Positions 7,480-37,278 of a stretch of DNA of 64,000 bases are shown here, one piece after another. Positions within the stretch are counted from its first letter, which is position 1, and each line of letters starts with the position of its first letter. Source of the stretch: an uncultured Acidimicrobiia bacterium (GTDB taxonomy: Bacteria > Actinomycetota > Acidimicrobiia > Spongiisociales > DATADW01); NCBI GenBank assembly GCA_963826825.1, contig CAWGYV010000016.1, positions 414,771 through 478,770 of the forward strand. Reading direction: 5' to 3'. The notes beneath the pieces were generated by a model. It did no database searches, had not been told where the DNA came from, and saw only the letters and a program-made list of their open reading frames with translations. Made by a program: the position numbers and the translations under genes.

Positions 7480-7483
7480 CCGC

Positions 7484-8754: not shown

Positions 8755-8780
8755 CGGTCCGTCCTACCATCGCTCCGCCA

Positions 8781-20259: not shown

Positions 20260-20278
<19 letters not shown>

Positions 20279-20904: not shown

Positions 20905-20992
20905 AACTGACCCCCGATCCGCCGGCGCCTACTACCCCGCCGACAAGAGGCGGGAGTCAAACAACCTGAGACGCCGAGGTCAAATGGGACTT

Positions 20993-21021
20993 GAGTACTT
21001 AGTACTAAGTACTAAGTACTC
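20993..21021. promoter_or_regulatory. 29-bp AT-rich perfect palindrome made of four AGTACT hexamers at 7-bp spacing
   Basis: The sequence is gAGTACTtAGTACTaAGTACTaAGTACTc. The 14-bp arms are exact reverse complements around the central A at 21007. It lies 10 nt downstream of the methyltransferase stop and ~90-115 nt upstream of the SLH operon start. Confidence 0.8.
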
Positions 21022-21030
21022 AGACGAATC

Positions 21031-22257
21031 TCACACCGATACCACCTCAGGGTCGAGACCCATCTCTGTGAGCTGATTCGTGATCTCCTCTTGGTAGATC
21101 TGGTTCATCAGTACCACCAGGTCGGGCTTGAGCTCGATGAGACTCTCGGGGGCGAGCACCTCGTGGCCGGTCCCGGGGAGGAACATCCCCTGCTTGTAGG
21201 GGTTGATGTCTACCACTGCCGACACGCTGTCGCCGAGGCCGATTGTGGTGAGGAAGGCGACCGCCTTGGACCCGCCACCCCAGATGGCGACACGCTCGCC
21301 GCGTTCGGCCGAACCCTCTAGCCGTTGGCGCCAGCTCTCGATGTGGCGGTTGGCGCCGGAGGCGAAGGCGAGCACCATCTCGCCGACTTCGTCGGGTGAC
21401 TCCTCGACCGGCAGCGGATCGACTGATCCGCCGATGACCGAGTCGGCCAGCAGGTACTGGTCACCGAACCCGAGTGCGATATCGGTGACGGTGAACCCCG
21501 CTTCCCTGAGGGCTCGCCCCAGCGAGCCGGGTGTGTAGTACGAGCAGTGCTCGTAGTAGATGTCCCAGAAGGCGAACTCCCTCAAGACCCGTCCCGTGTC
21601 GGGGACCTCGGTGAACATCGCTGCTCCGTCGGTTGCCTCCACGGACCGTCGCAGCAGCCTGAAGAAGTCGCCGACCGGGGCGATGTGCTCCATGGTGTGG
21701 CGGGTGATGACCAGGTCGCCGGTCAGCGGGGTGTGCTCCTCACCGTAGAAAGCGCGGATCAGCTCAACCGAGCCATCGCCCGCTTCCCCAACCGGCGGCC
21801 TCCCGAATCCTGGGTCGATCCCAATGCCCCGGCCGATGCCGAGCTCGGCCAGGAGCATCAAGAAGTCCCCCTTGCCGCTCCCCACCTCGAGCACGGTCCG
21901 CCCTTCGAGGCCGTACCTCTCGACGAGATCGCCGGCGAGTCGGCGGGCGAAGTTGGTGAACAGCGGCGAGAAGGCCTGCGACTCCTCGGTGGGCTGTCCG
22001 TAGTCCACCTTGTCGGGCTCGAAGCAGATGTTGGTGATGAACCCGCAACGGGGGCACAGCCCGAGCACAAGATCGCCGATGGGGTAGGCAGACGCCGACG
22101 GTTGGTCGGGCAGCAACACACAGCTTTGTGTCGGGATCTCCCCCGCGGCGAAGAAGGAGAGCAGCCCGGTGGCGCCGCAACTCGGGCAGGTAGCTGAGGC
22201 ACCGAGATCGAGTAGGTCGTCGCCCACCAGAGGGCGCAGGTCGGTCGGGCCGATCAC
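21031..22257 (-). CDS. Class I SAM-dependent methyltransferase with N-terminal Zn-ribbon and C-methyltransferase C-terminal domain (NDP-hexose C-methyltransferase-like)
   Basis: The GTG start overlaps the upstream stop (GTGA). It carries CPSCGATG...CPRCGF, the SAM motif VLEVGSGKGDFL and the C-terminal domain VAIWGGGSKAVAFL. In the ORF track it is fused to the next gene as one 829-aa ORF. Confidence 0.8.
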   Translation of the reverse strand: MIGPTDLRPLVGDDLLDLGASATCPSCGATGLLSFFAAGEIPTQSCVLLPDQPSASAYPIGDLVLGLCPRCGFITNICFEPDKVDYGQPTEESQAFSPLFTNFARRLAGDLVERYGLEGRTVLEVGSGKGDFLMLLAELGIGRGIGIDPGFGRPPVGEAGDGSVELIRAFYGEEHTPLTGDLVITRHTMEHIAPVGDFFRLLRRSVEATDGAAMFTEVPDTGRVLREFAFWDIYYEHCSYYTPGSLGRALREAGFTVTDIALGFGDQYLLADSVIGGSVDPLPVEESPDEVGEMVLAFASGANRHIESWRQRLEGSAERGERVAIWGGGSKAVAFLTTIGLGDSVSAVVDINPYKQGMFLPGTGHEVLAPESLIELKPDLVVLMNQIYQEEITNQLTEMGLDPEVVSV

Positions 22258-23520
22258 AGGATGGTGGGTTGCGGCACAGGGACGATGAAACGCCCGCCCC
22301 TTGCGGCGTACTCCGCTTGCTGGCGCATGATCTCGTCCCTGAAGTTCCAGGCGAGTATCAGCAGATAGTCGGGCGGGTCGTCGAGAAGCCGCTCCGGGGA
22401 AAAGATGGGCAGCCGCACTCCTGGCATATGCAGTCCGTGTTTGTGGTCGTTCCGATCCACAACGTAATTCGAGGTACTCCGCCGCCCCGGTGTAGTTGAG
22501 AAGCGTGGCGCCCTTGGCCGCGGCGCCGTAGGCAGCGATTTTTGCCCCCTCGGAGGTGAGCCTGGAGAGGAGGTCGATCAGGTCCTGGCGGACCTGTTCG
22601 ACCCGATCGGAGAAGGCGGCGTAGTACGCAGCCTCTGTGAGCCCGATCCTTCGCTCCTCCTCGAGGTACTCCTCCACCGACGGCTCGGCTTCGGCCACCG
22701 CCGAGAAGGTCACACGGAGCGACCCACCGTGGATGGGGAAGTGCCTCACCCGGATCAAATCGAGTCCGTGTCTGCCAAAGAGAGCGGCGAGCGCGGTGAC
22801 GGAGAAAATGCAGTGGTGCTCGTGATAGATGGTGTCGAACTCGCAGTTATCCACCATGTCGCGCACGTAGGGGACCTCGATCTCGACCCTCCCCTCGGGG
22901 GCGAGGATCGTCGCGATGCCGGCGACGAACCGGTTCTGGTCGGGGACATGGGCGAGGACGTTGTTGCCCAGGACCACATCCGCCCTCACTCCGTCCGCCA
23001 GCAATCGATGCGCCAACTCGGGCGTGAAGAAGTCCCTGATCGTGGGGATGCCCCTCTGCTCGGCAGCGGCTGCAGGACCGGGCGCCGGGTCGATCCCGAG
23101 GACGGGCACCCCGGCCTTGAGGAACCATTGGAGCAGGTAGCCGTCATTGCTGGCCAGCTCCACCACCAGGTTGTGGTCGCCAAGGCCGAGCTCGTCGACC
23201 AATCCTTCGGCATGGGTCCGGGAGTGCTCCAGCACCTGATCGGAGAAGGAGGAAAAGTAGGGATAGTCCTCGTCGAAAAGCACGGTGGGTGGCACTGTCT
23301 CCTTGATCTGGACGAGCGAGCACCGCGGGCAAAACACCACGGTGAGCGGATAGTGGTGCTCGTCGGCGGCGGGGAGACCCGGTGCCACCAGCTCGTCGGC
23401 CAGCGGGACCATCCCGAGATCCAGCACGGGGACCAGATCGGTCGCCCCGCAGCTGCGGCACCCGGCTATTACCTCATGCACAGGTACATCATGCACGGGC
23501 ACATCATGCACGGGCATCAC
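22254..23520 (-). CDS. Class I SAM-dependent methyltransferase with Zn-ribbon, paralog of the previous gene (frame break ~22465)
   Basis: It carries CRSCGATD...CPRCSLVQ, VVELASNDGYLL and AAYGAAAKGATLLNY. The C-terminus (VVDRNDHKHGLHMPGVRLPIFSPERL...FIVPVPQPTIL) lies in ORF 22254..22460. Confidence 0.8.
23471..23515 (-). repeat. 3 x 15-bp tandem repeat encoding (VHDVP)-type pentapeptides at the methyltransferase 5' end
   Basis: The units acctcatgcacaggt / acatcatgcacgggc / acatcatgcacgggc give the protein N-terminus MMPVHDVPVHDVPVHEV. Confidence 0.9.
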
Positions 23521-24547
23521 CCGTCGAGCTCATGAGACGGAGATCCTGGCCCAGCACGCCGGCGTCCTGGAGCGACCTCACGTGTTTGACGCGGAGGAGC
23601 TTCCCCAAGAAGGCGTCGGTCCCGATACCGTAGTTGACGAAAGCTTCGTGAAGCTGCTCGGCACCACGCCTCACCGTCCACTGCGTGGCGAAGGCGGGTA
23701 GGACTTCCTCGATCTTCGAGCAGTCGACCCGGTAGTCCCTGATGTCGGGCCCCGCGGTGTCGGAGAGGACTATTTCGCTCCCCGGCACCATCTCCTGGAC
23801 TATGTCGGCCACATCGCGGATCTGGTAGTTCTCCTCCGAGCTTCCCACGTTGAGCACCTGGTCGTGGATCCGTTCCCGCGGCGCTTCGACGGCAGCGACA
23901 AATGCCCGGGAGATGTCCTCGATGTGCACCAGCGGTCGCCAGGGACTGCCATCGCTCTTCATCAACACCCGACCCTCGGTCACCGCAAAGCCCACGAGAT
24001 TGTTGACGACCAGGTCGGCCCTGACCCGCGGCGAGTAGCCGTATGCGGTGGCGCTTCGCAGGCAGGCGGGGCTGAACGAGGTCGAGGCCAGCGCCCGGAT
24101 GTCTCCCTCTGCATTGATCTTGGAGAACCCGTATGGAGTCACCGGGTTTATCTCCGACTCCTCGGTCACGAACGCTCCCGGTGACGCGCCGTAGATGCTG
24201 CACGACGATGAGAAGACGAAGCGCTCGACACCCACGGCGGCGGCGATCTCCGCCAAGCGCGCTGCCGCATGGTGGTTGATGGCATAGGTCGTGTCGGCGT
24301 CGAGGTCTCCCACCGGGTCGTTGGAGATCCCGGCGAGATGGCAGATCGCCTCCACACCGGCGATGTCGTCCGGCTCGACGTCGCGCAGGTCCTTGCGGAC
24401 CGCGGGAATGTCGGGCCAGTCGGGGCCGAGAGTGCAGTCGGCGAACATGTAGCTGTCGAAGCCGACGACCTCGTGGCCGGCCTGCTGCAACAGTCGCACC
24501 AGCACCGTTCCGATATAGCCGTTGTGGCCGGTGACCATGACCCGCAT
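23504..24547 (-). CDS. NAD-dependent epimerase/dehydratase family (extended SDR)
   Basis: MRVMVTGHNGYIGTVL is the Rossmann GxxGxxG motif and YGFSKINAE is the YxxxK catalytic motif. The protein is 347 aa from ATG 24547; the ORF-track extension is rejected. Confidence 0.85.
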   Translation of the reverse strand: MRVMVTGHNGYIGTVLVRLLQQAGHEVVGFDSYMFADCTLGPDWPDIPAVRKDLRDVEPDDIAGVEAICHLAGISNDPVGDLDADTTYAINHHAAARLAEIAAAVGVERFVFSSSCSIYGASPGAFVTEESEINPVTPYGFSKINAEGDIRALASTSFSPACLRSATAYGYSPRVRADLVVNNLVGFAVTEGRVLMKSDGSPWRPLVHIEDISRAFVAAVEAPRERIHDQVLNVGSSEENYQIRDVADIVQEMVPGSEIVLSDTAGPDIRDYRVDCSKIEEVLPAFATQWTVRRGAEQLHEAFVNYGIGTDAFLGKLLRVKHVRSLQDAGVLGQDLRLMSSTGDARA

Positions 24548-24552
24548 GGCCT

Positions 24553-25323
24553 TTAGTCCCAGATCTTCCAGGGCGGGTCGCCGCCATCCCAGAGCCGCTC
24601 CAACAGTGCCTTGTCCCTCATGGTGTCCATGCACTGCCAGAAGCCCTCGTGGCAGTAGGCCATCAACTCGCCGTCCGCGGCCAGATTCTCCATCGGCTCC
24701 CGCTCCCAGAGCGTGTCGTCGCCCTCGATGTAGTCGAAAACCCCGGGCTCGAGGACGAAGAATGCTCCGTTGATCCACCCGACGTCGAGCGGCTTCTCCG
24801 AGAAGTCCACCACCCGATTCCCCTCGATATGGAGGCCGCCAAATCGAGCGGGTGGGTGGACCGCGGTCACAGTGGCGAGCCTGCCGTGTGATCGGTGGAA
24901 GGCGAGCAGCCGGGAGAGGTCGATGTCGGACACCCCGTCTCCCCAGGTGAGCATGAATGTCTCATCTCCCAGCCAGGGCGCCAGCCGCTTGATCCGCCCG
25001 CCCGTATCGGTCCACCGGCCGGTCTCGATCAGGTCGACCACCCACTTCTCGGCCGCACCACCGTCGTGGACCCTGACATCGCCTGTGGAGACATCGACGC
25101 GGAGGCTGGAGGTCGTGGTGAGGTAGTCGGTGAAGAACAGCTTTATTTGATCGCCCTTGTAGCCGAGGGCAATGACGAATTGGTTGTACCCGAAATGGTC
25201 GTATTGGCGCATGATGTGCCACAGGATCGGATGGCCGCCGATCTCCACCATCGGCTTGGGCCTGATCTCGGTCTCCTCCGCCAGACGGCTTCCCAGACCG
25301 CCGGCGAGGATCGCCACCTTCAT
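24553..25323 (-). CDS. rfbF: Glucose-1-phosphate cytidylyltransferase
   Basis: Intact, 256 aa. MKVAILAGGLGSRLAEETEIRPKPMVEIGGHPILWHIMRQY...FWQCMDTMRDK is the typical RfbF sequence. Confidence 0.9.
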   Translation of the reverse strand: MKVAILAGGLGSRLAEETEIRPKPMVEIGGHPILWHIMRQYDHFGYNQFVIALGYKGDQIKLFFTDYLTTTSSLRVDVSTGDVRVHDGGAAEKWVVDLIETGRWTDTGGRIKRLAPWLGDETFMLTWGDGVSDIDLSRLLAFHRSHGRLATVTAVHPPARFGGLHIEGNRVVDFSEKPLDVGWINGAFFVLEPGVFDYIEGDDTLWEREPMENLAADGELMAYCHEGFWQCMDTMRDKALLERLWDGGDPPWKIWD

Positions 25324-25401
25324 GACGCAGTCATCGCGATGCGCTCCCCTCCCTCACTCAGCGTGGCGATCGTACCACTCGGGGCGACTCGTCGTTTCTG
25401 T

Positions 25402-26253
25402 ATGGGCCCGCCTACGCTCCCGGCCCTCATGCCCACAAACCAGCGGCCCACGAAGTTTCAGAAGCGCGTCACCGCGCTCAAACGCAAGGCACACCTCGGT
25501 GTCGAGCATCGCTCTGAATTCGACAATATCTACCATTGCTGTGTCCAGCGGACCGCCAGCCAGTGGCTCCGCAACATCTACAACGACGAGGTCTTCTATC
25601 GAAACACCGGACTGCGAGCCATCCCATACAAGGAGATGGGTTTGGCCGGTGCCCACATCGACGGACCATTCCCCAAGCGGACGATCGTCACCCACCTCTA
25701 CATCTCCTACCCAACCTACCTCTCGATCCCTAAGCCACGAGCGCACCGGTTCTTCTTCGTCCAGCGCGATCCGAGGGATGCGGTGGTCTCTTGGTACTTC
25801 GCTGCCCGCTACTCGCACAAGCCGATGGGGGCGATCCCGGAGATGCGCCGCGACCTGTCGTCCATGTCGCAGGAGGAGGGCATCCACTACATGATCGACG
25901 CCATCAGCGCACGCGGCTACTTCGATGCGCTCCGCTCGTGGACGGAAGTCGAGCCATCGGATTCGTTCCGTATCTTCCGCTATGAGGACATCGCCCTCGA
26001 CCTCCGCGGCTTCCTCGGCGATCTGTTCAAATTCCTCAAGATTCCGGCGCAATCTGCCGAGTTGGATTCGTTGGCGGAGCGCAAGAGCTTCCAGCAGGCG
26101 AGCGGCGGCCGCCAACAAGGCGAAGAGGACATACACGCCCATTTGAGGAAGGGAACTCCGGGCGACTGGCGGACCGCGCTCAATGACAGCGCCCTCGACC
26201 ACCTGCGCCGGGTATCGGGTGACCTGGTGGAGGTTCTGGGGTACGAGACATGA
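25402..26253 (+). CDS. Sulfotransferase-domain protein
   Basis: It carries FFFVQRDPRDAVVSWYF and the C-terminal HLRKGTPGDWR motif. Only the C-terminal ~280 aa of ORF 24895..26253 is credible. The start is ATG 25402 or 25429. Confidence 0.75.
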   Translation: MGPPTLPALMPTNQRPTKFQKRVTALKRKAHLGVEHRSEFDNIYHCCVQRTASQWLRNIYNDEVFYRNTGLRAIPYKEMGLAGAHIDGPFPKRTIVTHLYISYPTYLSIPKPRAHRFFFVQRDPRDAVVSWYFAARYSHKPMGAIPEMRRDLSSMSQEEGIHYMIDAISARGYFDALRSWTEVEPSDSFRIFRYEDIALDLRGFLGDLFKFLKIPAQSAELDSLAERKSFQQASGGRQQGEEDIHAHLRKGTPGDWRTALNDSALDHLRRVSGDLVEVLGYET

Positions 26254-26280
26254 CCGTCGGGTCGCCCGTTTCGGAGAGGG

Positions 26281-27198
26281 ATGGGAATGACCCCACTACC
26301 CAAAGTGTCTATCGGCTTACCGGTCTACAACGGCGAGAACCACATCGGTGATGCCATCGAGTCGATCGCATCGCAGTCTTTCGCAGACTTCGAACTGATC
26401 ATCTCCGACAACGCATCCACCGACTCCACCAGCGAGATCTGTCGGGGGTGGGCCGAGCGGGACGGACGGATCCGCTACTTCCGCAAGCCCACGAACATCG
26501 GGGCCGCGCCCAATTACCACCACGTCTTCCGGATGGCACGGGCCGATCTCTTCAAGTGGTCGGCGCACGACGACATGCTCGACCCGGGCTTCCTCGAGTC
26601 TTGCGTCGCCGCCCTCGACGATGATGCCGGCGCGGTGCTCGCATACACGGCGGCACGTCAGGTGGACGGCGATGGGAAGCCGCTCGGTGACATCCCACGC
26701 TTCTCGCAGGTGGTCTCCGCCGATCCCGTGGAGCGGTTCCGCGAAGTGGTCCGCCGGGAGCGGCTCAACCTCCCCATTTTCGGGCTTGTCAGGTCAGCGG
26801 CTCTCCGGGAGACCGCGTTACCCGGCTCCTACCACGCCAGTGCCCGGGTCCAACTCGCAGAACTGGCACTGCGCGGCACGTTCGCCTTCGTGCCGACTGT
26901 TCACTTCATCCATCGCAACCACCCTGCGGGCTCGCTGCGCGCCTATGACTCGGTCCACGCCCTCCGCAGCTGGTACGACACCGGCCGATCGGCTGGGACG
27001 TACATGCCCAGGTGGGAGTACATGAGCGGTCTGATGGGCGCTGCAACCCGCGCACCACTGTCGTGGCGGCAACGGGTCGACTGCTACGGAGAGGCCTTCA
27101 GGTGGGCGTTTGAGAAGCGCCGCAGCCTGGCATTGGATGTGGCCGAGGCGGGACGGCAATTGCTCGGCGGAGCAGTGCCTCGCCTCCGTCGCACCTGA
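26281..27198 (+). CDS. Glycosyltransferase family 2
   Basis: Intact, 305 aa. VSIGLPVYNGENHIGDAIESIASQSFADFELIISDNASTDST includes the D-x-D type region. Confidence 0.88.
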   Translation: MGMTPLPKVSIGLPVYNGENHIGDAIESIASQSFADFELIISDNASTDSTSEICRGWAERDGRIRYFRKPTNIGAAPNYHHVFRMARADLFKWSAHDDMLDPGFLESCVAALDDDAGAVLAYTAARQVDGDGKPLGDIPRFSQVVSADPVERFREVVRRERLNLPIFGLVRSAALRETALPGSYHASARVQLAELALRGTFAFVPTVHFIHRNHPAGSLRAYDSVHALRSWYDTGRSAGTYMPRWEYMSGLMGAATRAPLSWRQRVDCYGEAFRWAFEKRRSLALDVAEAGRQLLGGAVPRLRRT

Positions 27199-27226
27199 GC
27201 CGGGTCCCCCATTTAGACCCGGCTCA
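27196..27226. terminator. GC-rich hairpin between convergent GT2 and LPXTG-A genes (no U-tract)
   Basis: The sequence is tgagccgggtc-ccccattta-gacccggctca, an 11-bp stem. It includes the GT2 stop codon. Confidence 0.6.
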
Positions 27227-27259
27227 CTGTACGGACTACCCCTCAGCCGGCGGGCGTTA

Positions 27260-28145
27260 TCAGCCGGATGACCAGGGCTTGTCGGGGGCACCGTCTTCGC
27301 TCCGCCGACGCGTAGCGCCCAGCGCCACCGCGCCAGCCACCACTAGCGCCGCTCCCAGGCTCAGCCAACCACCACCGGCCCCGGGCCCGGTAAAGGGCAG
27401 GGTCTGCGCCACGGTGGTGGCGGAAATCGAGGTGCTGGTTATCTGAATCGAGGTGGTCGGCGTCGTTGGGTCGGTTGTCGAGGTGGTGGTCCGTCGGCGT
27501 GGTCTCCGGTGTCGTAGTCGTGGTCTCCGATGTTGTGGTCGTGGTCTCCGATGTTGTGGTCGTGGCCTCCGATGTTGTAGTCGTGGCCTCCGATGTCGTA
27601 GTCGTGGCCTCCGATGTTGTAGTCGTGGTCTGTTGAGCGGTGCAGGTGGCGGTCACCGAGTAGTCCACAGAGGTGGCAACAATCCCATTGGCGTCGGGAA
27701 CCATCACGTTGTACAGCTCGATGGTTGCGCCAAGCACCAGCGTGGCGTCCTGGAGGACGGTCTCGACAACATTGGGTAGCGACTCGGTCTGGAGAACGTC
27801 GGTCTCGTTGACGCCGGTGGCGATCACCCCGAAGTTGTTGAGATGGACGCTCTGGCCATTGGCGGCCGCCACGCTGAACGTGCACGTCCTCCCAATCAGG
27901 TCCCCATAGCCGTTGGCCGCCAGGTCGAAGGTGGTGAGCAGCCGCCTTACCCCCTCTTGGTCGGTCTGGTCCACCGGACGTGGGACGGAGAAATCCGCCC
28001 CGGTGAAGCTGAAGCTGACCGTCTGAGCCATGGCCGGTACCGCCAAAACGGCAGGCACCGCCACCAGCGCGGCCACGAACACTGCTCCGAGACGCCTTTT
28101 CAGCCCGGACAGGTTGAAAGAACCCCGGCTGCGTGATGCACGCAC
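27260..28145 (-). CDS. LPXTG-type cell-wall-anchored surface protein, copy A (frame break ~27480)
   Basis: The signal peptide is LGAVFVAALVAVPAVLAVPAMAQ. The N-domain reads FSFTGADFSVPRPVDQTDQEGVRR, followed by (TTTTSEx)6. After a frame shift the C-terminus reads ...TLPFTGPGAGGGWLSLGAALVVAGAVALGATRRRSEDGAPDKPWSSG-stop at 27260. Confidence 0.8.
27499..27624 (-). repeat. 6 x 21-bp tandem repeat encoding TTTTSE(A/T) heptads
   Basis: Six units of gtggtctccgatgttgtggtc and close variants are head to tail, in frame within LPXTG-A. Confidence 0.95.
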
Positions 28146-28158
28146 GACAAATCTCCCT

Positions 28159-28197
28159 CGTCAACCCCTTGTCCCCTTCCTACCGGGACGGTTGACG
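28159..28197 (-). promoter_or_regulatory. Conserved 5'-leader hairpin of LPXTG-A (paralogous element at 29646..29683 upstream of LPXTG-B)
   Basis: The stem cgtcaacc ... ggttgacg (8 bp, 23-nt loop) lies just upstream of the GAGGGAG Shine-Dalgarno. Copy B has cgtcacc ... ggttgacg. Confidence 0.5.
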
Positions 28198-28280
28198 ACC
28201 CAGGCGTTGAGGCAACTTAGATAGATCCCAAGGGAAACGCATCGCAAACCGACTGACTTCTTTAGCCAATTCGGTTATTG

Positions 28281-28386
28281 CAGATCCTGATCGGTGAAGC
28301 GGCGCACCATTAGTTCGAACCGGGGTAGCACGTTCCGAAGACGGCAGCTGCTCGGGGGCGCCGTCCCCCGGCTGCGCCGCACCTGA
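28281..28386. other. Duplication junction: degenerate copies of the CapK/PaaK-like gene 3' end and the GT2 gene 3' end
   Basis: 28281..28345 resembles 29775..29850 (gatcc..tcggtgaagcggcg..g.tcgaaccgggg.agc). 28346..28386 resembles 27150..27198 and still reads LGGAVPRLRRT-stop. Confidence 0.8.
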
Positions 28387-28411
28387 GCCGGGTCTCCCTA
28401 GACCCGGCTCA
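28384..28411. terminator. Second copy of the GC-rich hairpin, downstream of LPXTG-B
   Basis: The sequence is tgagccgggtc-tcccta-gacccggctca. It is a paralog of 27196..27226. Confidence 0.6.
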
Positions 28412-28461
28412 ACGTACGGACTACCCCTCAGCCGGCCAGCGTTCTAGCCGGACAAACTCGC

Positions 28462-29598
28462 TCAGCCGGAGGAGAAGGGCTTGTCGGGAGCGGTGTCCTC
28501 GCTCCGGCGCCTGGCCGCTCCTAGCGCCACTGCGCCCGCAATCAAGAGCGCCGCACCCAGGCTCAGCCAACCACCGCCACCGGGCCCGGTGTTGGGCAAC
28601 GTCGGGGGCACCGTCGTCACGACCGGGATGGTCGTGGGTGTGGTGGTGACGGTCGTCTGGAAGGGGGCGTTGCAAAGCGTCGACGCAGGCGGGTAGGGCA
28701 CCTCGAACACCTCGGTCTGAGGGTTGAGCGTGAGCTGGATGAAGATTGGCCGGTAACTCTCGGGCGGCCACGTGATCGGGTCGGTCGAGTCGTCGTAGCC
28801 CGGCCAGAGGCGGTTGACCGACACGTTCCCCTGGGCATCGGCGTTGACCGTCATCACCTCGATCTCGTTCATGTCACGGTCGTAGATGTGGAGCTGGATC
28901 CCGGTGGCGTTTGCCGGCCAGCCGCTCGACTCGACCACCAGGTGGGGTACGGCGTTGATGCACTCGCCGGTTGCCACCGGGACCGTGGGCGGCGCCGTCG
29001 TGGTCGTAGGCACCGTGGTTGATGTGGTAGTGGTTGACGAGGTGGTGGACGTGGTCGTGGTCGATGAGGTTGTCGATGTGGTCGTGGAAGTTGTCGTTGT
29101 GGTGGTCTGGTCTGCGCAGAACACCAACACCGTGTAGTCCACGGAGGTGCCCACGATGTCATCGTCATCGGGCATCCATGATGTTGTAGAGCTCCATCGT
29201 CTCGCCGAGGACGAGGGTGGGGTCGTCGAGCACGGTTCTCAGGACATTGGGCTCCGATTCCGTCTCGAGGACGTCGGTCTCGCTGCCCCCGGTCACGATC
29301 AGCCCGAGGTTGTTGACGTGGACGCTGTCGCCATTGGCCGCCAACACGATGATCCTGCAGGTCTGTCCGACCAGGTCCTCGAACCCGTTGGCCACCAGGT
29401 CAAAGCTGGCGACAAACCGCTGCACGCCTTCCTGGTCGGTCTGATCGGCGTCACGGGGGATGAAGAAGTCCGACCCCGTGAAGGTGAAGTCGGGAGTGGG
29501 AGCTGAGCCTGAGCCGGCACTGCCAGCACGAGAGGCACCGCCACCAACGCGGCAACCACGACTGCCGCCAAACGTCTTCTCAGCCCCGAAGCGGACAA
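28462..29598 (-). CDS. LPXTG-type cell-wall-anchored surface protein, copy B, with an extra middle domain (frame breaks ~29500 and ~29170)
   Basis: The signal peptide is LAAVVVAALVAVPLVLAVPAQAQ and the N-domain reads FTFTGSDFFIPRDADQTDQEGVQR. A Thr/Ser-rich linker and an extra domain follow. The anchor reads LPNTGPGGGGWLSLGAALLIAGAVALGAARRRSEDTAPDKPFSSG-stop. Confidence 0.85.
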
Positions 29599-29768
29599 GC
29601 CGCCATAACCCTATCGTGCGAACTCCACCCACGTCGCTCTCCCTTCGTCACCCCTTGCTTTCGCCTACCGGGCACGGTTGACGACCCTGGCGTATAAAGC
29701 CAATCTAGACAGACCCAAAAAGAAACGCGTGCACGCCGGTCCTTTTCCGCCAGCCGGCTGAGATCTCC

Positions 29769-31077
29769 TTACCGGAGATCCTTGCGGTGGTCGGTGAAGC
29801 GGCGTGCCTTGAGGTCGAACCGGGGAAGCGTCCCCATCGGAACCGTCGTGGCCAGCGGCCGGACTCCGATCCCGGTGTGGATCTCGCGGGCTACGGCGGC
29901 GGCGAGGGCGTCGGGATCACCCGTGGTGACCTCGATGCGCAGCTCCATCACGTCGAGCTCTTCCTTGCGGTAGACGTCGACAGCGAACTCGCCGATCTCG
30001 GGGAAGCGCCGCACCAGGTTCTCCACTGCGCTGGGGAAGATGTTGACGCCGCGCACGATGAGCACGTCGTCGACCCTCCCGGTGACACCACCCTCGAAGC
30101 GCATGAAGGTCCTGCCGTCCTCGCTGGGTTCGGAGGCGACGACCACATGGTCGCCGGTGCGGTAGCGGATCACCGGGAACCCGGGGCGACCCAGGTTGGT
30201 GATGATCAGCTCGCCGTCGTTCGACTCCTCACCGGTGGCGGGATCGATCACCTCGGCGAGGAACTCCGCCTCGTTGACGAACAGCCCGTTCTGGAGTTGT
30301 GACTCGAAGCCCCAGGCACCGACCTCGGTTGCGCCGGCATGGTCGTAGGCCCGTGCCCCCCACGCCTCTTCGATCCTCGCCCGGGTCGCCGGGATCCCTG
30401 CCCCGGGCTCGCCGGCGTGGATGGCCACTCGCACACCCGAGTTGGCGATGTCGATCCCCTCCTCGGCTGCCACCTCGGCGAGGTGGAGGGCGTAGGTGGG
30501 GGTGCACACCAGCACCGAGATGTCGTTGACCAGGATCGCCTTGAGCCGCTGCAGCGACGACATCCCACCGCCGGGGAAGGCGAGGGCGCCGATGAGACGG
30601 GCACCTTCATAGGCGCTCCAGAAACCGATGAACGGCCCGAACGAGAAGGCGAAGAAGATGCGGTCCATCGAGGTGACACCGGCACTGCGGTACACCTGCG
30701 ACCAGCAGCGGGCCCACCACCGCCAGCTGTCCTCGGTGTCGAGGCAGCGCAGCGGCTCACCCGTGGTACCGGACGTCTGATGGATCCGGGTGTACCGGGT
30801 GCGGGCATAGGTGAGGTTGGTCCCGTATGGCGGATTGGAGATCTGGTCGGTGGCCAGTTCCTGCTTGGTGGTGAACGGGATCTTCTTCAGGTCGTCCATG
30901 GTGCGGACGTCGTCGGAGCTGCGAATGCCGGCACGACCCAGCTTGCCCCGGTAGAAGGCGTTGCCGTCGAGCACCTCGTCCAGCAGAAGCTGAAAGCGGC
31001 GCAAGCTGGACCTCCTGCAAGGCGTTGCGGCCCAGCGTCTCGGCGAACCCGGTCGAAAACTCGAACTCCATCGTCAT
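29769..31077 (-). CDS. Adenylate-forming enzyme of the phenylacetate-CoA ligase / CapK / F390-synthetase-like family (frame break ~31004)
   Basis: It carries IHQTSGTTGEPLR, DHAGATEVG, RYRTGD and VDDVLIVRGVNIFP. An extra N-terminal 24 aa (MTMEFEFSTGFAETLGRNALQEVQ) lies in the adjacent frame, with GGAGGG upstream. Confidence 0.82.
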
Positions 31078-31103
31078 CCCTCCATGTCTCCTTGACCCCG
31101 CCC

Positions 31104-31716
31104 TCAATCGAGCGACGGAGCGGGGTCCACCCCCACTGGAAACTTCTCGTTTATCAGCATGAACGGCAGCCCATCGTGGACCACCCGGTAGGTGCGGGCG
31201 ATGAACTCGCCCAGCCCTCCGAGCCCTTCGGGCGGAACGGCATTGCGCTCCCGCCCGTACCAGAGGATGTCGCGCCTCGTCTCGAGACCGGCATCGTTCA
31301 TGATCCTGCCGAGCCCACCGGGGTGGGTGGCCAGTTCATCCTGGACGCTGCTCGGAAGCCGCTCGGCGACCAGGAGCGAGGCGGCGTGGGCGAACACGAC
31401 ACCACGCAATGTGCCTCGTGAGCAGCACCTCGCGGGCGATCACCCTTGTCCCGGCGGGAGCCTCGAGCCATTCGTGGTCGGCAGGGAGGACCAACTCCTC
31501 CTGCGACAACCGCTCGACCACGACCGGCTCCATGGTGAAGGCCTCGATGAACTTCGTCACCGTGCCGTCGATCACCAGCAGCGACCGGTAGAAGGGGCTC
31601 AACGCCCTGAAATTGACCGGCTGAAGCGTCTCCGGCCGGGCGAACTGGGCGACGAACACCTCGGCGGCGGGATCGAACCCGGCGGTGGTGCCGACAGCGG
31701 AGCTTTGGTGACCCAT
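31104..31716 (-). CDS. Chorismate pyruvate-lyase family protein (DUF98, Rv2949c-like; frame break ~31400)
   Basis: LLVIDGTVTKFIEAFTMEPVVVERL, VFAHAASLLVAERLP and FIARTYRVVHDGLPFMLINEKF align by eye with my memory of the mycobacterial chorismate pyruvate-lyase. Confidence 0.65.
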
Positions 31717-31717
31717 C

Positions 31718-33435
31718 TCAGCTCACCTGAACCTGCTGAAGCTCACCCGACTGGTACATCCGCTTGAAGTGGCTGTGACGGCGCTTGCCGCTCGAGGTCT
31801 TGGTGAGCGTGCCCGTCGGGACCAGCACGACGTCGACATTGATGCCCAGCCTGAGGAAGCTCTGGCGGCGAATCTCGCCGGCGATCTCGTCGGCGGGACG
31901 GGGCATGGGGTCGGTCACCTCGCTGACGACGACGACCCGCTGCGTCCCTTGGCCGCTCTCGTCCATACCAAAGGCGGCGAAACACCCCTTGCGCAGCCCC
32001 TGCACCTCGAGGAGGAAAGGCTCGAAATCGCTCGGGTCGAATTTCTTCCCCCGGACCGTGATCCGCTCCCGGACCCGACCGGCCCAGTAGAGCTCGTCGT
32101 CGCGCATGTAACCCAGGTCGCCTGTACGGAGAAGTTCGCCATGGATCGCCCGCTTGGTGGCCTCGGCGTTCTTCAGGTAGCCGTTCATCCGGGAAGCGGT
32201 GTCGAGGGCGATCTCGCCGACGTGACCCTCGGGGAGTGGCTCGCCGCGGGGCGAGAGGATCTGGATCTTGATCCCCGGATGGGGCTCGACCCGATCCGAC
32301 GATGCTCACCGCCTTCTCGTCGGTGGGGTCGACGATCCGCGCCGTCCGCGCCTCCGGCCAGGGCGTCGCGGTCCACGAACTCAACCCGGTACGGCTCCCC
32401 GGGACGGGTGAAGGTGGCACCGCCGATGTTCTCGGCGCAGCCGAAGTTGGTGCGCAGCCGGTCCCATGGCACTCCGAAGCTCTCGAACCGGCGGTGGAAC
32501 TCGACGAACGTCTCGTGGTGGATGCGCTCGGCGGCGTTCCACCAGCCGCGTACCCCGCTGAGATCGACACCCTCGATATCGCTGTCCTTGACCCTCTGTG
32601 CCGCCAGGGCGTACCCGAAGTTGGGCGACCAGGTGACGGTCGCGCCGGTGCGCTGCACTCCCTGGAGCCATGCCGCCGGCGACTTGACGAAGTCGTGGGG
32701 GCTCATCAACACCAGGGGGATGCCGGTGGCCATGCAGGTGAGGAAGTTGTTGACCAGACCCATGTCGTGATACAGCGGGGTCCAGTTGAAGAAGACGTCC
32801 TGGTCGGTCAGCTCCATGGCGGCCACCATCCCGTCGATGGCGGCGGTGAGCGCATGGTGCTCCCAAACACAGACCTTGGGGAGACCGGTCGTCCCCGAGG
32901 TGAGCTGGTACGCAACGACCTCGGAGGGGTCGGGGAGGTGACGGGGGACGGCGTCCACGTCGGGAGCGCCCAGCGCCTCGTCCTCGGAGAAGAGCCAGCG
33001 CGTCGAGCGTCGGACCCGTTCCAACTGATCGCGGTCGCGGGCCATCGAAGCCGGCGCCACCACCAGTTGCGCCTCGGTGCGGCGCACCGTCGCCGAGAGC
33101 ACCCTGGGCAGGTCGGAGTTGGCACCGAGCAGCGAAGGTGGCGCCACCAGAAGAGGACGGGCGCCCAGGAGCAGCGAGCCGAGCACCAACGTGGCCGCCG
33201 GCTCTGCGCTGCTGAGCACGATGACGACGGCGTCGCCCTGGCCTACACCTAGCTCTGCCATTCGCCCCGCCGACCCGGCGGCGGCAGCGTGGACCTCGGA
33301 GTAGGTGCGCCAGGTGGTCGTGCCGTCGGGTTGGTAGAAGGCGAGGGCGCGCTGCTCGGGAGCGCGCTCCAGACGCTCGTAGAGCCGCGCCGGCACGGTC
33401 TCGGGGAGGATGCTTGTGCGTATCACGGGGCTCAC
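31718..33435 (-). CDS. Fatty-acyl/aryl-AMP ligase (FAAL-like adenylating enzyme; frame breaks ~32345 and ~32283)
   Basis: It carries YQLTSGTTGLPKV and the FAAL-typical WTPLYHDMGLV. Shifted frames give ARIVDPTDEKAVSIVGSGR and PHPGIKIQILSPRGEPLPEGHVGEIAL. The C-terminus carries TGDLGY and TSSGKRRH. Confidence 0.82.
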
Positions 33436-33439
33436 CTCG

Positions 33440-34456
33440 TCAAAGGGTCCGGCCGATGGCCACCGATATCCGGCGGCACTCCTCGACCAGGTTGGAAAGC
33501 TGATCGGGGGTCACCGACTGGTCACCGTCGGACAGAGCCTGCTCCGGGTTCTGGTGCATCTCGATGAGCAGCCCGTCGGCCCCGCTGGCGATGGCGGCAC
33601 GCGCCATGGCCGTCACCAGCGAGCGCCGTCCGGTGGCGTGGCTCGGGTCGACCACCACCGGGAGGTGGCTCAACTCCTTGAGCACCGGGATGGCGTTGAG
33701 GTCGAGAGTGTTGCGGGTCGCCGTCTCGAACGTGCGGATCCCCCTCTCGCAGAGGATCACGTTGGTGTTCCCCTGCGACATGATGTACTCGGCGGAGAGC
33801 AGCAGCTCCTCGATCGTGGACATCATGCCCCGCTTGAGCAGGACCGGCTTGGGCTGACGGCCCGCAGCGAAGAGCAGATGGAAGTTCTGCATGTTGCGGG
33901 TACCGATCTGGAGGATGTCGGCGTACTCGGATACCAGCGGTACCGTCTCGGATGACATCACCTCGGTGATCACCGGCATCCCGGTGAGGTCCCGCGCCTC
34001 GGCGAGGATCTTGAGCCCCTCCTCGGCCATGCCCTGAAAGCTGTATGGCGAGGTTCTGGGCTTGAAGGCGCCGCCGCGGAGGACGGTGGCGCCGGCCTTC
34101 TGGGCGTGGATGGCGGCCTCGATCAGCAGGTCGCGGCTCTCGACCGAGCATGGCCCGGACATCACCACAACCTCTTCTCCGCCGATGACGACGCCGCCGC
34201 CGAGATCGATCTGGGTGGGCTCGGGCCGGTATTCACGGCTGGCCAGCCGGTAGGCGCGCTTGGTTGGGAGCACCCGCTCCACACCGCGCAACCCGGTGAA
34301 CGCCGACGGCGTCGCGTCGTCGAAGGAGCCCAGGATTCCGATGAGGACCTGGCCGCCGTCCTCGGAAACATGCGACTTGAGACCGAGGCTGTGGACCCGG
34401 GCCACGACGTACTCGACGTCCGCACGGGTCGCCGCCATCTTCATCTTGATGATCAT
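33440..34456 (-). CDS. aroF: 3-deoxy-7-phosphoheptulonate (DAHP) synthase, type I-beta with N-terminal regulatory domain
   Basis: The ORF is intact. It carries [38 protein letters not shown] and [11 protein letters not shown]. The start is [17 protein letters not shown] at 34456. Confidence 0.88.
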
Positions 34457-34675
34457 GCTTGCCGTTCTCCCCGACACTCGGACCCGGTCCGGTCCGCTCC
34501 ATTGGCATGCCCTCTCCGGGCATCCTGGAGCCGGCCGAAATGCCGGATCGCCCCTTCCCCGCAGTCATCGACTTGCGGGGGTCGGACCGGCTGCTGCTGC
34601 CACGCGCCCCGACCGTTGTCGATATCGGCACCGTCAGCGGGCAACTGAACAGGAAACTCCTGGTCAGGTCACACC

Positions 34676-35159
34676 CTATTCGACCGGGCAGGCCCGTTGC
34701 TCGGGGCCTCGTTGGGCGTGGTCTTCCCAGAACCTGGCGATGGCCGCGGTGTCGGCACCGTCGAGCCGCAGCATCACCGTCCACGCGGTGGCGACCACCG
34801 GCGCCGGCATGCCTGCCCTCGGGGCGATGATGACGTGGCTGCCCAGGTCGTCGGCGAGGCCCCGCAGCGCGGCGAGATCCTCTTCGTGCCAGGTCCGGGT
34901 CGTGCTGCACCACGACGACCCCGTGCTCCAGATCGTGCACCTGGACCACGTCGGGTATCGGCTCATCGTGTACCCCGCAACGCGACCACACCGGAGCGTG
35001 CGCCCCGCTCGTGGGTGGATCCGTCCCGTACTCAGGGAGAGGGTCACCGGCGGACAGGTGGTCGCGGCCCTCGTCGGGAAACTGCTCCACCGAACCGCTC
35101 GCAGCGCTGGCGGAACAGGCGGCGACTGCGACCAGCAGAATCGCCCCGAGGCGGATCAC
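34676..35159 (-). CDS. DUF3105-like secreted protein (frame break ~34890)
   Basis: A signal peptide (MIRLGAILLVAVAACSASA) is followed by YGTDPPTSGAHAPVW and VHDLEHGVVVVQHDP. After a shift it reads LGSHVIIAPRAGMPAPVVATAW. Confidence 0.6.
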
Positions 35160-35934
35160 CGGCCGCGAAAGGCCGGGTCACGCCCTTCGAGAAAGGCGGC
35201 GACACCTTCCGCAACGTCCTCCGTGCCGAGGCTGATCGCCTGGGCATGGGACTCGTGGGCCAGCATCTGCTCGAAGGTGGCGCCGAGCGAGCGGTCGAGT
35301 CCCTGCTTGATGAAGGATTGCGCCAGCGGGGCGCCTGCGGCGAGGCTCTCGGCCAGCTCGGTCACCACGACCTCCAACTCCCCTGGCTCCACGACCTCGA
35401 GCACCAAGCCGATTCGGCGCGCCTCGTCGGCCTCGACCATCCGACCGGTCAGCGCCAGTTCCTTGGCTCGTCTGCAGCCCGACGATCCGGGGCAGCAGCC
35501 AGGTGCCCGCGAAGTCGACCGCAAGACCGCGCTGGACGAAGAGCTCGGCGAACCGGGCCCGAGACGAGGCGACGACGAGGTCGCACCCCAGTGCCAGGTT
35601 CATCCCGGCACCAACGGCAGCACCATCGACCGCCGCCACAGTCGGCTTGGTCAGCCGGTGCAGCGATCGCGCCGCTGCGGCCACGGTCTGCAGCCGCTCG
35701 TAACGGTCTCGGTGCGAACCGAGCCCACTGCTGATGCCCGAGGCGGACAAGTCGGCGCCCGAGCAGAAGGCTCCACCTGCTCCGGTGATGACGAGCACAC
35801 GCTGGTCGGCCCGAGGAGAAGTCGTCGAACGCCTCGGCCAGTCCCACCCACCCGTCGGGCGGTATGGCGTTGCGGCGCTCCGGTCGGTCGAGGGTGAGCC
35901 ACCGCACAGGTCCGCGGTCCTCGATGGTCAGCAT
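35156..35934 (-). CDS. Enoyl-CoA hydratase/isomerase family (frame breaks ~35800 and ~35490)
   Basis: MLTIEDRGPVRWLTLDRPERRNAI / VLVITGAGGAFCSGADL...KPTVAAVDGAAVGAGMNLALGCDL / AKELALTGRMVEADEARRIGLV lie in three frames. Confidence 0.82.
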
Positions 35935-35940
35935 GGCTGG

Positions 35941-35989
35941 GACGGTAGACGGCGGACGGCGGACGGCGGACGGCGGACGGCAGACGGCG
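35941..35989. repeat. 7 x 7-bp tandem repeat GACGG(C/T)(G/A) in a divergent intergenic region
   Basis: The units are gacggta gacggcg gacggcg gacggcg gacggcg gacggca gacggcg. The array lies 7 nt from the enoyl-CoA hydratase ATG (minus strand) and 34-82 nt upstream of the CMD-family TTG start (plus strand). Confidence 0.95.
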
Positions 35990-36022
35990 GCCAGAATCGG
36001 ACAATACGGACAAGGAGGGTCT

Positions 36023-36607
36023 TTGGCCTTCATCGACTTGCTCTCGGAACGGAGCAGGCGGCTGACGCGGTTGGGGCTGCCTGCCGGGGAGGAGGTGCCC
36101 AATTACGCACGGTTGGGCGCGCTCCATCCCGATGCTTATGCGGGGTGGGAGGCGCTGATCGCCGCCATCAGGGAGGGAATGGACCGGCGGCGTTACGAGC
36201 TCGCCACGGTGGCGGCGGCGAAGCGACTCGGCTCGAGTTACTGCTCGCTTGCCCATGGCAAGGTGCTCGCTGAGCGGTTCTACGACCCCGATCAGGTACG
36301 CGCCATCTACTCCGATCGGACATCCGCTGGGCTCGACGAAGTGGACGTGGCGGTGATGGATCTTGCCGAGAAGGTGGCCGCCGATGCGACCTCGGTCGGC
36401 GAGAGGGACATCAAGCTGCTGTTGGAACTCGGGCTGAGCGAGCGTGACGTGCTCGACGTCGTGCTCGCCGCCGCCGCACGCAGCTTCTTCACCAAGCTCT
36501 TGGACGCCATGGGTGTCGCCCCGGACGGCTCATACCGCCGGCTCGACGCCGACCTCGTCGAAACACTCACCGTGGGACATCCCATCGAAGGGGCTGCTCC
36601 CCTCTAA
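36023..36607 (+). CDS. Carboxymuconolactone decarboxylase (AhpD-like) family protein
   Basis: TTG start at 36023, 4 nt after AAGGAGG (36012..36018). RYELATVAAAKRLGSSYCSLAHGKVL and DVVLAAAARSFFTKLLDAMG are present. The longer ORF-track N-terminus is rejected. Confidence 0.6.
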   Translation: MAFIDLLSERSRRLTRLGLPAGEEVPNYARLGALHPDAYAGWEALIAAIREGMDRRRYELATVAAAKRLGSSYCSLAHGKVLAERFYDPDQVRAIYSDRTSAGLDEVDVAVMDLAEKVAADATSVGERDIKLLLELGLSERDVLDVVLAAAARSFFTKLLDAMGVAPDGSYRRLDADLVETLTVGHPIEGAAPL

Positions 36608-36616
36608 CCTCTGCCT

Positions 36617-36730
36617 GTGGGCTTCAACCCGTTCCGTCAGCAGCGGCACAACGGCGCCGATGTGGCGATCGTCGTCATGGCGGTTCTGGTCACGGCGGCA
36701 GTGGTGGCGTGGGCGCTGCTCGGAGGGTGA
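36617..36730 (+). CDS. Possible 37-aa single-TM small protein
   Basis: My own translation is VGFNPFRQQRHNGADVAIVVMAVLVTAAVVAWALLGG-stop. The stop overlaps the next GTG (GTGA). It is not in the ORF track because it is under 60 aa. Confidence 0.35.
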   Translation: MGFNPFRQQRHNGADVAIVVMAVLVTAAVVAWALLGG

Positions 36731-37273: not shown

Positions 37274-37278
37274 GCCGG

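Follow-up and report, generated by a model that had tools for sequence, protein, structure and literature searches.

LPXTG surface proteins (TIGR01167 / PF00746) combine a signal peptide, a sorting motif, a hydrophobic segment of ~20 amino acids (aa) and a basic tail with a Thr-rich, low-complexity, wall-spanning stalk that bears an N-terminal globular domain. All of these elements, with a motif of the form LP(F/N)TG, occur in the products of two adjacent genes, termed copy A and copy B, in a 64,000-nucleotide stretch of contig CAWGYV010000016.1 (assembly GCA_963826825.1) from an uncultured Acidimicrobiia bacterium; this whole stretch is referred to as the window. However, both proteins differ from the described class in being very small (~290-390 aa) and in having an unusually long and conserved tail. 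The explanation that best accounts for the whole of the evidence, with a probability of roughly 0.85, is that A and B are two paralogous genes for sortase-type LPXTG surface proteins and stem from one old tandem duplication of ~1.3 kb.

Microhomology-mediated (RecA-independent) tandem duplications constitute the closest described mechanism. The locus shares with them the head-to-tail units, a junction on a direct repeat (11 nt here), truncated flanking genes at the junction and, apparently, later collapse by recombination between the repeats. Nevertheless, such duplications are usually studied as unstable, recent amplifications, unlike this one, which is old, is fixed in several lineages and has both copies under purifying selection. 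The mechanism and the protein architecture are within known kinds and represent ordinary genome evolution, and the new elements are two domains that lack family models and a well-resolved duplication history.

CnaB/transthyretin-like sandwiches are stalk modules common in Gram-positive adhesins. An extra domain of copy B, termed domain X, resembles those of CnaB2 (PDB 8bdw) and the UafA B region in that it is modelled as a beta-sandwich of ~100 aa in the stalk of an LPXTG protein, but it has no Pfam match, is near-orphan, carries a Cys pair at its borders and has a model of only moderate confidence. For the N-terminal domain that both copies possess (the N-domain), the closest structures are TNF-like/jelly-roll lectins, namely the N-terminal domain of BC2L-C (PDB 2wq4 / 6tig), which gave the best Foldseek matches and is likewise a compact beta-sandwich of ~130 aa. 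However, the match is weak (E 2e-3, TM-score 0.44-0.47, 13% identity), and jelly-rolls of viral capsids, furin P-domains and Ena3A score similarly. No paper that treats Acidimicrobiia, LPXTG and sortase together was found in the literature.

The Duplicated Segment and Its Junction

Read from left to right on the plus strand, the locus consists of a GT2 glycosyltransferase gene, a hairpin, copy A with its leader, the junction, a second hairpin, copy B with its leader, and the gene of a PaaK/CapK-like adenylate-forming ligase, all relevant genes but GT2 lying on the minus strand (Table 1). It is a tandem segmental duplication, head to tail, of a unit that comprises the GT2 3' end, the hairpin, the LPXTG gene, its leader and the ligase 3' end. 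According to blastn, window positions 27152-28329 and 28340-29829 are head-to-tail repeats with 69-91% identity depending on the segment; in the comparison of 27100-28400 with 28300-29900, 27519-28329 matched 28984-29829 (69%, E 1.9e-116) and, collinearly, 27152-27418 matched 28340-28617 (74%, E 4.3e-51). A repeat search confirmed the register of these matches, with identity differing by segment. The initial annotation of this DNA, made from the sequence alone, had proposed the tandem duplication of an LPXTG cassette, and this proposal stands in view of the collinear repeats, the significant scars and the independent junction of a related genome (L001) described below. The LPFTG/LPNTG anchors, GC-rich hairpins and Thr-rich linkers that it listed as shared are all present in both copies.

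Between the copies lie remnants of the 3' ends of both flanking genes. Thus, 28288-28329 aligns with 29788-29829, the last ~40 nt of the ligase gene (83% identity, local-alignment score 28), and 28340-28398 aligns with 27152-27210, which comprises the last ~47 nt of GT2 and the hairpin (81%, score 37). When 914 random segments of the window were aligned to the same targets, the scores had a mean of ~10, a standard deviation of 1.8 and a maximum of 19, so that the likeness of the junction segments to the flanking gene ends exceeds that expected by chance, and the proposal withstands the refuting alternative that the initial annotation had named. The GT2 scar had also been correctly recognized, including its reading LGGAVPRLRRT-stop, but it begins at ~28332 and not at 28346; its last 42 nt are one base off the functional GT2 3' end of the related genome L002 (type II, see below). 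Similarly, the content of the duplicated unit, from the GT2 3' end through the ligase 3' end, was rightly given, whereas its length, stated as ~1.2 kb, is in fact ~1.3 kb.

Syntenic loci in related metagenome-assembled genomes (MAGs) were located via homologues of the N-domain, which gave seven loci including the window. In L001, the repeat has a period of 1305 nt (6276-7540 against 7581-8855, 75.7% identity) and the junction is much longer than that of the window, since a 76-codon, still open C-terminal fragment of the ligase gene, with 87% aa identity to real ligases, is directly followed by ~55 nt of GT2 3' end, which equals the 85 nt from breakpoint to stop codon less a 30-nt internal deletion of its own. 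The joint of L001 reads ...CGCCGATCTCGGTG-GAAGCGCCGCA-GCCTGGCGCTGGATG..., or, in short form, ligase...GATCTCGGTG-GAAGCGCCGCA-GCCTGGC...GT2, and the corresponding contexts in the window are ...CGCCGATCTCGGG-GAAGCGCCGCA-CCAGG... at 30003-30013 in the ligase gene and ...TTTGA-GAAGCGCCGCA-GCCTGGCATTGGATG... at 27114-27124 in GT2. Since the L001 joint and both window parents carry GAAGCGCCGCA, the breakpoint falls inside this 11-nt microhomology; moreover, a predicted junction, obtained by joining the window ligase and GT2 sequences at GAAGCGCCGCA, matches the L001 junction over its full length. When pairs of 300-nt segments spaced 1.3 kb apart were drawn at random, ~11% had exact matches of at least 11 nt; such a repeat is thus not rare per se, and it is the position of the junction on it that counts.

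Relative to this primary junction, the window and L003 show nested deletions. The parent ligase gene carries GGGGAAGCG as a 9-nt direct repeat at 29822-29830 and 30000-30008, and the sequence enclosed by the two repeats is missing from both junctions; the repeats thereby explain the secondary deletion in the ligase scar. A further ~22 nt are missing from the GT2 scar of the window. Judged from these alignments, the original unit was ~1.3 kb long and the junction of the window is a remnant of the primary one, shortened secondarily by ~200 bp.

Table 1. Positions of features and repeats of the LPXTG locus in the window
Feature	Position	Strand	Evidence and remarks
GT2 glycosyltransferase gene, convergent with copy A; parent of GT2 scar	26281..27198	+	PF00535 E 4e-25
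11-nt microhomology GAAGCGCCGCA, GT2 side	27114..27124		exact match to 30003
GC-rich hairpin GAGCCGGGTC...GACCCGGCTC, GT2/copy A interval	27197..27225		fold -37 kcal/mol, z -3.0, 0/200 shuffles as stable
Copy A	27260..28145	-	three-frame translation, GC3 frame plot; homologues P0002 and P0003 intact
Copy A LPFTG	27386-27400	-	followed by transmembrane segment and RRRSEDGAPDKPWSSG tail to stop at 27260
Copy A Thr-rich linker	27413-27638	-	21-nt tandem repeats
Copy A jelly-roll N-domain (modelled)	27639-28025	-	
Copy A signal peptide	28026-28145	-	
Promoter and 5' leader of copy A	28146..28280	-	block GGGTCGTCAACCGTCCCGGTAGG (28179-28201), GGGAG ribosome-binding site; 8-leader alignment
Ligase 3'-end scar (last ~50 nt and remnant of GGGGAAGCG repeat)	28281..28331	-	alignment with predicted junction, L001 and L003
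GT2 3'-end scar, still encoding LGGAVPRLRRT-stop	28332..28386	+	local-alignment score 37 (random maximum 18)
Duplicate GC-rich hairpin, downstream of copy B	28385..28410		fold of 28378-28465 -46.6 kcal/mol, z -3.9
Copy B	28462..29632	-	GTG start at 29632; TIGR01167 20.3 bits
Copy B LPNTG	28585-28599	-	followed by transmembrane segment and RRRSEDTAPDKPFSSG tail
Copy B domain X	28657-28968	-	followed by Thr-rich linker 2
Copy B N-domain	29116-29491	-	signal peptide before it, to ~29500; Thr-rich linker 1 after it
Promoter and 5' leader of copy B	29633..29768	-	same invariant block at 29665-29688; 8-leader alignment
PaaK/CapK-like adenylate-forming ligase gene; parent of ligase scar	29769..31077	-	PF14535 E 3e-17, NF041878 E 3e-71, tblastn against L002
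11-nt microhomology GAAGCGCCGCA, ligase side	30003..30013		exact match to 27114
3' spacer repeat	27214-27258 and 28399-28443		91% identity
Anchor repeat	27260-27376 and 28462-28578		79% identity
N-domain repeat	27696-27995 and 29171-29470		73% identity
Signal peptide repeat	28023-28109 and 29503-29589		76% identity
Leader core repeat	28185-28207 and 29671-29693		91% identity
Junction scars against parents			81-83% identity

Age, Selection and Phylogeny of the Copies

Nei-Gojobori (NG86) estimates of synonymous (dS) and nonsynonymous (dN) divergence and of their ratio omega, over 105 ungapped N-domain codons, gave dS 0.77, dN 0.22 and omega 0.29 for A against B. Against the orthologues, the respective values were 0.12, 0.03 and 0.25 for A and L001, 0.31, 0.095 and 0.31 for A and L003, and 0.17, 0.04 and 0.23 for B and L002; in the flanks, these genomes are ~84-96% identical. 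With a dS between copies of 0.77 as compared with 0.12-0.31 between orthologues, the duplication is several times older than the split of the genomes, and omega values of ~0.3 indicate that both copies are kept under purifying selection. Moreover, the A genes (window, L001, L003) and the B genes (window, L001, L003, L002, L004) form separate clades, each with 100% bootstrap. Since the A and B copies cluster across genomes, the duplication is single and predates these genomes, which agrees with the ancient origin put forward at the outset. Independent duplications in L001 and in the window/L003, which differ in their ligase breakpoints, were also considered and are ruled out by the same clustering.

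The B stem is longer than that of A, with A being 68-72% and B 52-58% identical to the outgroup P0007. A third paralogue at another locus (clade C) shares 70-72% of its aa with A and 56-68% with the B clade (62-68% with copy B of the window), and A and B are 58-63% identical to each other.

Copy-Number Polymorphism and Mosaic Flanks

The pair is present in three of the seven syntenic loci (window, L001 and L003/L007), and the remaining four (L002, L004, L013 and L014) have a single B-type gene in the interval between the ligase and glycosyltransferase genes; none of the seven shows an A-only arrangement. One of the single-copy loci, L014, has flanks with ~95% identity to those of the window.

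For the last 42 nt of GT2, two versions, I and II, were found that differ at 10 synonymous positions, and the spacer downstream of the LPXTG gene is likewise of two types, A-like or B-like (compared at 27190-27230 and 28378-28416 in the window, 7663 and 8891 in L003, 4758 in L014 and 8928 in L002). In L003, a B-like spacer adjoins a type I scar on the B side and an A-like spacer adjoins the type II end of the real GT2 on the A side. In the window, the spacer is A-like on both sides, next to a type II scar on the B side and to a type I real GT2 end on the A side. The two single-copy loci join a B-like spacer to a real GT2 end that is of type I in L014 and of type II in L002. Such criss-cross combinations point to gene conversion and to an exchange of alleles at this locus. 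Thus, it seems that the 3' flank of copy B in the window was converted from the A side, which would explain the 91% identity of the spacers, and that L014 returned to a single copy secondarily, by recombination of the scar with the real GT2 end. The window GT2, which shares 91-98% of its aa with those of L002, L003 and L014 (98.4% with L014 and 93.8% with L003), is probably an L014-like allele, and the ligase is 99.8% identical in aa to that of L003. Exchange of GT2-end alleles in the population would explain why the scar can still be read as an intact C-terminus and stop.

Tandem pairs of other family members, made up of an a-type (FSF...) and a b-type (L-FT...) gene 880-1025 nt apart, occur in more distant Acidimicrobiia MAGs (at 3911-5534 in L009, and also in L010, L011 and L012), with the two types forming two separate clades in the tree; paired genes are thus recurrent in the family. 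In addition, a GT4-family (Glycos_transf_1) gene lies between the LPXTG gene and GT2 in L001 (8924-9748) and L013 (4769-6040), so that the glycosyltransferase content of the cluster varies between close relatives.

Encoded Proteins and Their Domains

With the reading frames restored, copy A encodes 294 aa and copy B ~390 aa. The initial annotation had copy B begin at 29598, yet its start is the GTG at 29632, which aligns with the GTG of copy A at 28145 and with the start of the L002 gene, and not the internal TTG at 29598; the reconstruction used in the searches began at this TTG and comprised 378 aa. The signal peptides, identified by inspection, have a basic n-region, an Ala/Val/Leu-rich h-region and AMA|Q or AQA|Q cleavage motifs, and are conserved in 23 homologues. 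At the C-terminus, both copies end in the conserved tail RRRSEDxAPDKP(W/F)SSG; apart from LPFTG-GPGAGGGWLSLGAALVVAGAVALGAT-RRR... and LPNTG-...-RRR..., translation of the window in all six frames revealed no such motif. The LAXTG/LPXTG models match both copies. TIGR01167 gave 20.3 for copy B against a cut-off of 15.9, copy A not being listed, and PF00746 gave 18.4 for A and 17.6 for B, both under its cut-off of 20. In the stalk of copy A, 7-9 tandem copies of a 21-nt unit (27472-27660) encode the heptad TSE(A/T)TTT, and the length of this array differs among the window, L001, L003 and L014.

The N-domain comprises ~130 aa and has two invariant Cys residues and the motifs SDQ(E/V)GV, AANGxSVH and ELYNVM; that of copy B is 87.5% identical in aa to its intact L002 orthologue. 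No Pfam or NCBIfam model covers it in either reconstructed protein or in ten distant homologues, and a PDB sequence search with profiles of the N-domain and domain X gave nothing below E 0.1. A word-indexed search of 5.8e9 proteins retrieved 23 relatives of the N-domain, which share one architecture throughout. When 1.84e9 cluster representatives were searched with a profile, there were 26 matches at E<=1e-30, 80 at <=1e-10 and 442 at <=1e-3, the last count being inflated because the weaker matches consist of the C-terminal half of the domain plus the low-complexity linker and anchor. An AlphaFold2 model built on a 24-sequence alignment is all-beta (pLDDT 95.4, pTM 0.87), and Foldseek against the PDB returned only weak jelly-roll neighbours, none below E 1e-3, namely the N-terminal TNF-like lectin domain of BC2L-C (TM-score 0.47), Ena3A, FlhE, birnavirus VP2 and furin P-domains. 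The fold class of the model is that of a jelly-roll. The predicted surface display, a predicted conserved disulfide and the lectin-like neighbours of the model suggest a binding or structural role on the wall.

Domain X comprises 104 aa, is bounded by Cys residues (GECINAV...TLCNAPFQ) and is flanked by two Thr-rich stretches. A tblastn search of the seven syntenic loci found it solely in copy B of the window, and none of the B orthologues in L001-L004, L013 and L014 has it, which supports the later gain of a domain by copy B stated in the initial annotation. Among 5.8e9 proteins it has 2 homologues, from Joint Genome Institute (JGI) metagenomes (69-77% identity), each a C-terminal fragment that carries this LPNTG anchor and tail, so that the form of copy B with domain X exists elsewhere, but is rare. 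Its AlphaFold2 model reached a moderate pLDDT of 73, with CnaB2 (8bdw_A) as the best PDB match (E 8.8e-4, TM-score 0.39/0.48), and Pfam gave nothing but FlgD_ig at E 0.09.

Frame Breaks and Alternative Explanations

As sequenced, and as the initial annotation had not noted, neither copy is a single intact open reading frame (ORF), copy A having one frame-breaking indel and copy B three. The called ORF of copy A (27243-28145, P0001) ends without an anchor, since the frame changes in the Thr-rich linker at ~27485-27495 and the LPFTG anchor lies in another frame (27260-27412); placement of this shift to the single base by alignment of the linkers of four genomes was not achieved, as the repeat arrays differ in length. 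In copy B, the frame is lost near 29600, regained near 29498 and lost once more at 29175, where one base (T on the plus strand, A in gene sense) is inserted that is absent from L002 and L014. On either side of every shift, the GC content of third codon positions (GC3) is 0.86-0.94 in the homologous frame. Similar breaks occur in the adjacent genes: when intact L002 genes were aligned to the window (tblastn, blastn), eight further 1-nt insertions appeared in 21000-37600, for instance at 22466, 31004, 31416-31420, 32286, 32357, 34890, 35472 and 35814, two each in the genes of enoyl-CoA hydratase (ECH) and fatty-acyl-AMP ligase (FAAL) and one each in those of the DUF3105 protein, the Rv2949c-like protein, the PaaK-like ligase and a C-methyltransferase. 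That near 31004 is the cause of the N-terminal 25 codons of the ligase sitting in the other frame. The broken neighbours are 88-97% identical in aa to their L002 orthologues, and L001, L003, L004, L013 and L014 are likewise full of frame breaks. The relatives found in GTDB are "MFD" MAGs, which are Nanopore-only assemblies with one round of Medaka polishing (PMC12313526). Errors of the Nanopore consensus, and not pseudogenization, are therefore the most likely source of the four indels in A and B, and single-base frame breaks in the window should not be taken as pseudogenes unless supported at the level of reads. A GC3 hidden Markov model for counting frameshifts was discarded as too noisy, because it switched frame inside intact ORFs, and the comparison with L002 was used instead. 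The 829-aa ORF at 21031-23520 (minus strand) is not a single gene; its counterparts in L002 are two neighbouring genes of sugar C-methyltransferases (416 and 408 aa), here fused by a frameshift near 22466-22550.

Nevertheless, several points weigh against intact, functional copies. Together, A and B carry 4 frame-breaking indels in 2.06 kb, which is ~3x the density in the neighbours (8 in 12.6 kb; Poisson P ~0.04), and all three pair-bearing genomes have a frame-broken B, whereas A is mostly unbroken, as in L001 and L003 with their intact genes P0002 and P0003. In addition, the Nanopore origin of the window itself is deduced from its relatives. The indel density and the breaks in B, together with the loss of the in-frame anchor in A and the splitting of B by three frame changes, would fit one or both copies, B above all, being real pseudogenes which became redundant after the duplication and are decaying by frameshifts. 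Such decay is improbable, given that GC3 remains ~0.9 in the homologous frame on both sides of the shifts, that omega is 0.23 for B against its intact L002 orthologue and 0.23-0.31 overall, with no relaxation of selection, that the break positions differ in the three genomes, so none was inherited, that a 237-codon stretch including domain X is intact, and that adjacent conserved metabolic genes show the same kind of 1-nt insertion in a group whose related assemblies are Nanopore-only. The frame changes could also be biological, by slipped-strand phase variation or programmed frameshifting in the linker that would switch the protein between anchored and released forms, for which the shift of copy A within its 21-nt tandem repeats and the loss of frame in or just past the linker in P0005, P0004 and P0009 from other assemblies could be cited. 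However, slippage by a 21-nt unit, a multiple of three, would keep the frame, the shifts of copy B lie outside any repeat (such as the base inserted at 29175), neither a slippery heptamer nor a stimulatory structure was seen, and the same assemblies show random 1-nt indels in housekeeping genes, all of which makes a biological switch hardly credible.

Other points concern the history of the pair. The branching order of the A, B and C clades has only 64% bootstrap, and the divergence between A and B (dS 0.77) exceeds that between the scars and their parents, as the ligase scar of L001 is 81-82% identical to all five real ligases and the GT2 scar of the window is ~98% identical to the GT2 end of L002. 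A simple clock fits only if the scars were converted or alleles of the N-domain were imported. Already diverged A-type and B-type alleles or paralogues might have been joined at the microhomology, or one N-domain might have been imported later from a diverged strain, which would account for the excess of dS and for the greater closeness of A to clade C and P0007 than to B; moreover, the criss-cross GT2-end and spacer types and the switching of the nearest relative along the flanks imply frequent recombination here. This course of events is judged rather unlikely, since no A-only arrangement occurs in the seven syntenic loci, the leader, signal peptide, anchor and 3' flank are duplicated together with the N-domain, and conversion of the scars by the nearby parents explains the discrepancy equally well. 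As regards function, the claim of the initial annotation that no sortase gene lies in the window agrees with a motif scan of the 64 kb, in which no TLxTC-type motif appeared in a coding-like frame, albeit that scan is a weak test; and the anchoring, glycosylation and ligand binding of the A and B proteins are predictions.

Proposed History and Function

According to the single old duplication favored here, a single-copy ancestor with the order ligase <- gene <- / -> GT2 would have undergone illegitimate recombination or replication slippage that joined two copies of GAAGCGCCGCA, located ~85 and ~235 nt upstream of the stop codons of GT2 and the ligase gene, respectively, and duplicated the sequence between them. 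GT2 and the ligase would have remained intact at the outer ends, with a scar of ligase 3' fragment and GT2 3' fragment left between the copies. Subsequently, a 178-nt deletion between the 9-nt repeats in the ligase scar, common to the window and L003, and the loss of ~22 nt more from the GT2 scar of the window would have shortened the junction. Gene conversion or allele exchange may then have altered the 3' flanks, an orphan beta-sandwich domain may have been inserted into the stalk of copy B, and some lineages may have collapsed to a single B-type gene with the loss of copy A. The locus thus offers a clear natural case of the origin and subsequent editing of a bacterial gene pair, in which the breakpoint microhomology, both scars, the deletion between 9-nt repeats, the conversion tracts and the reversion to a single copy can be read from a few related genomes.

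The proteins would be exported, cleaved at the LPXTG motif and linked to peptidoglycan by a sortase encoded elsewhere, displaying a disulfide-containing jelly-roll on a Thr-rich stalk that is probably O-glycosylated, with domain X lengthening the stalk of copy B. Because the gene is located within a conserved cluster for envelope glycans, the proteins are likely to act as adhesins, lectins or components of the envelope. Two domains without a family model thus come from a poorly known soil lineage: a confidently modelled jelly-roll, present in a few hundred small LPXTG proteins, and a near-orphan stalk domain. It is also conceivable, but rather doubtful, that the N-domain founds an undescribed jelly-roll (TNF-like) family of surface modules of Acidimicrobiia-type actinobacteria, with stalks O-glycosylated by the surrounding cluster of cytidine diphosphate (CDP)-sugar, sulfotransferase, C-methyltransferase and GT2 genes, and that the A/B pair and domain X represent a polymorphism under diversifying selection by phage or grazers, with frequent gain, conversion and collapse.

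Leaders and Terminators

In an alignment of eight leaders of A- and B-type genes from six genomes, a block GGGTCGT(C/T)AACCGTCCCGGTAGG is near-invariant, with one C/T position, despite the coding-region dS of 0.77; the block of copy B in the window carries a 1-nt insertion. A TA(A/G)NTT motif conserved upstream of the block may be a -10 box, and the block itself could be an operator or an RNA element. An Rfam scan of 27000-30000 at E up to 1 gave no match, and folding of the leaders (z -2.5 for A and +1.5 for B) revealed no consistent structure. The GC-rich hairpin at 27197-27225 is probably a bidirectional terminator. A sigma-70 consensus and terminator scan found no promoter and two in-gene terminator-like sites that were not above shuffles, and missed the GC-rich hairpins because they have no T tail.

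Genomic Context

The conserved cluster that surrounds the LPXTG gene or genes is the same in all clean relatives and contains the genes of DAHP synthase, the fatty-acyl-AMP ligase, an Rv2949c-like chorismate pyruvate-lyase, the PaaK-like ligase, GT2, a sulfotransferase, glucose-1-phosphate cytidylyltransferase, a nucleoside diphosphate (NDP)-sugar dehydratase/epimerase, two sugar C-methyltransferases and S-layer homology (SLH)-domain proteins. It looks like an envelope glycoconjugate cluster, for which the Thr-rich stalks are, hypothetically, glycosylation targets. In the window, the cluster (20263-36000) joins genes of chorismate-derived aromatic acids (DAHP synthase, Rv2949c-like lyase, FAAL and PaaK-like ligase) with a CDP-hexose part that includes the two C-methyltransferases, the sulfotransferase, GT2 and the SLH-domain proteins, and it resembles a pathway of the phenolic-glycolipid or S-layer-glycan type. 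A 166-aa SLH protein of L002 has a 96% match at 20263-20760, within an SLH segment at 20263-20790 (minus strand), and matches of 48-57% in several overlapping registers at 17889-18401 (minus strand), which suggests that S-layer-type wall-binding proteins adjoin the cluster.

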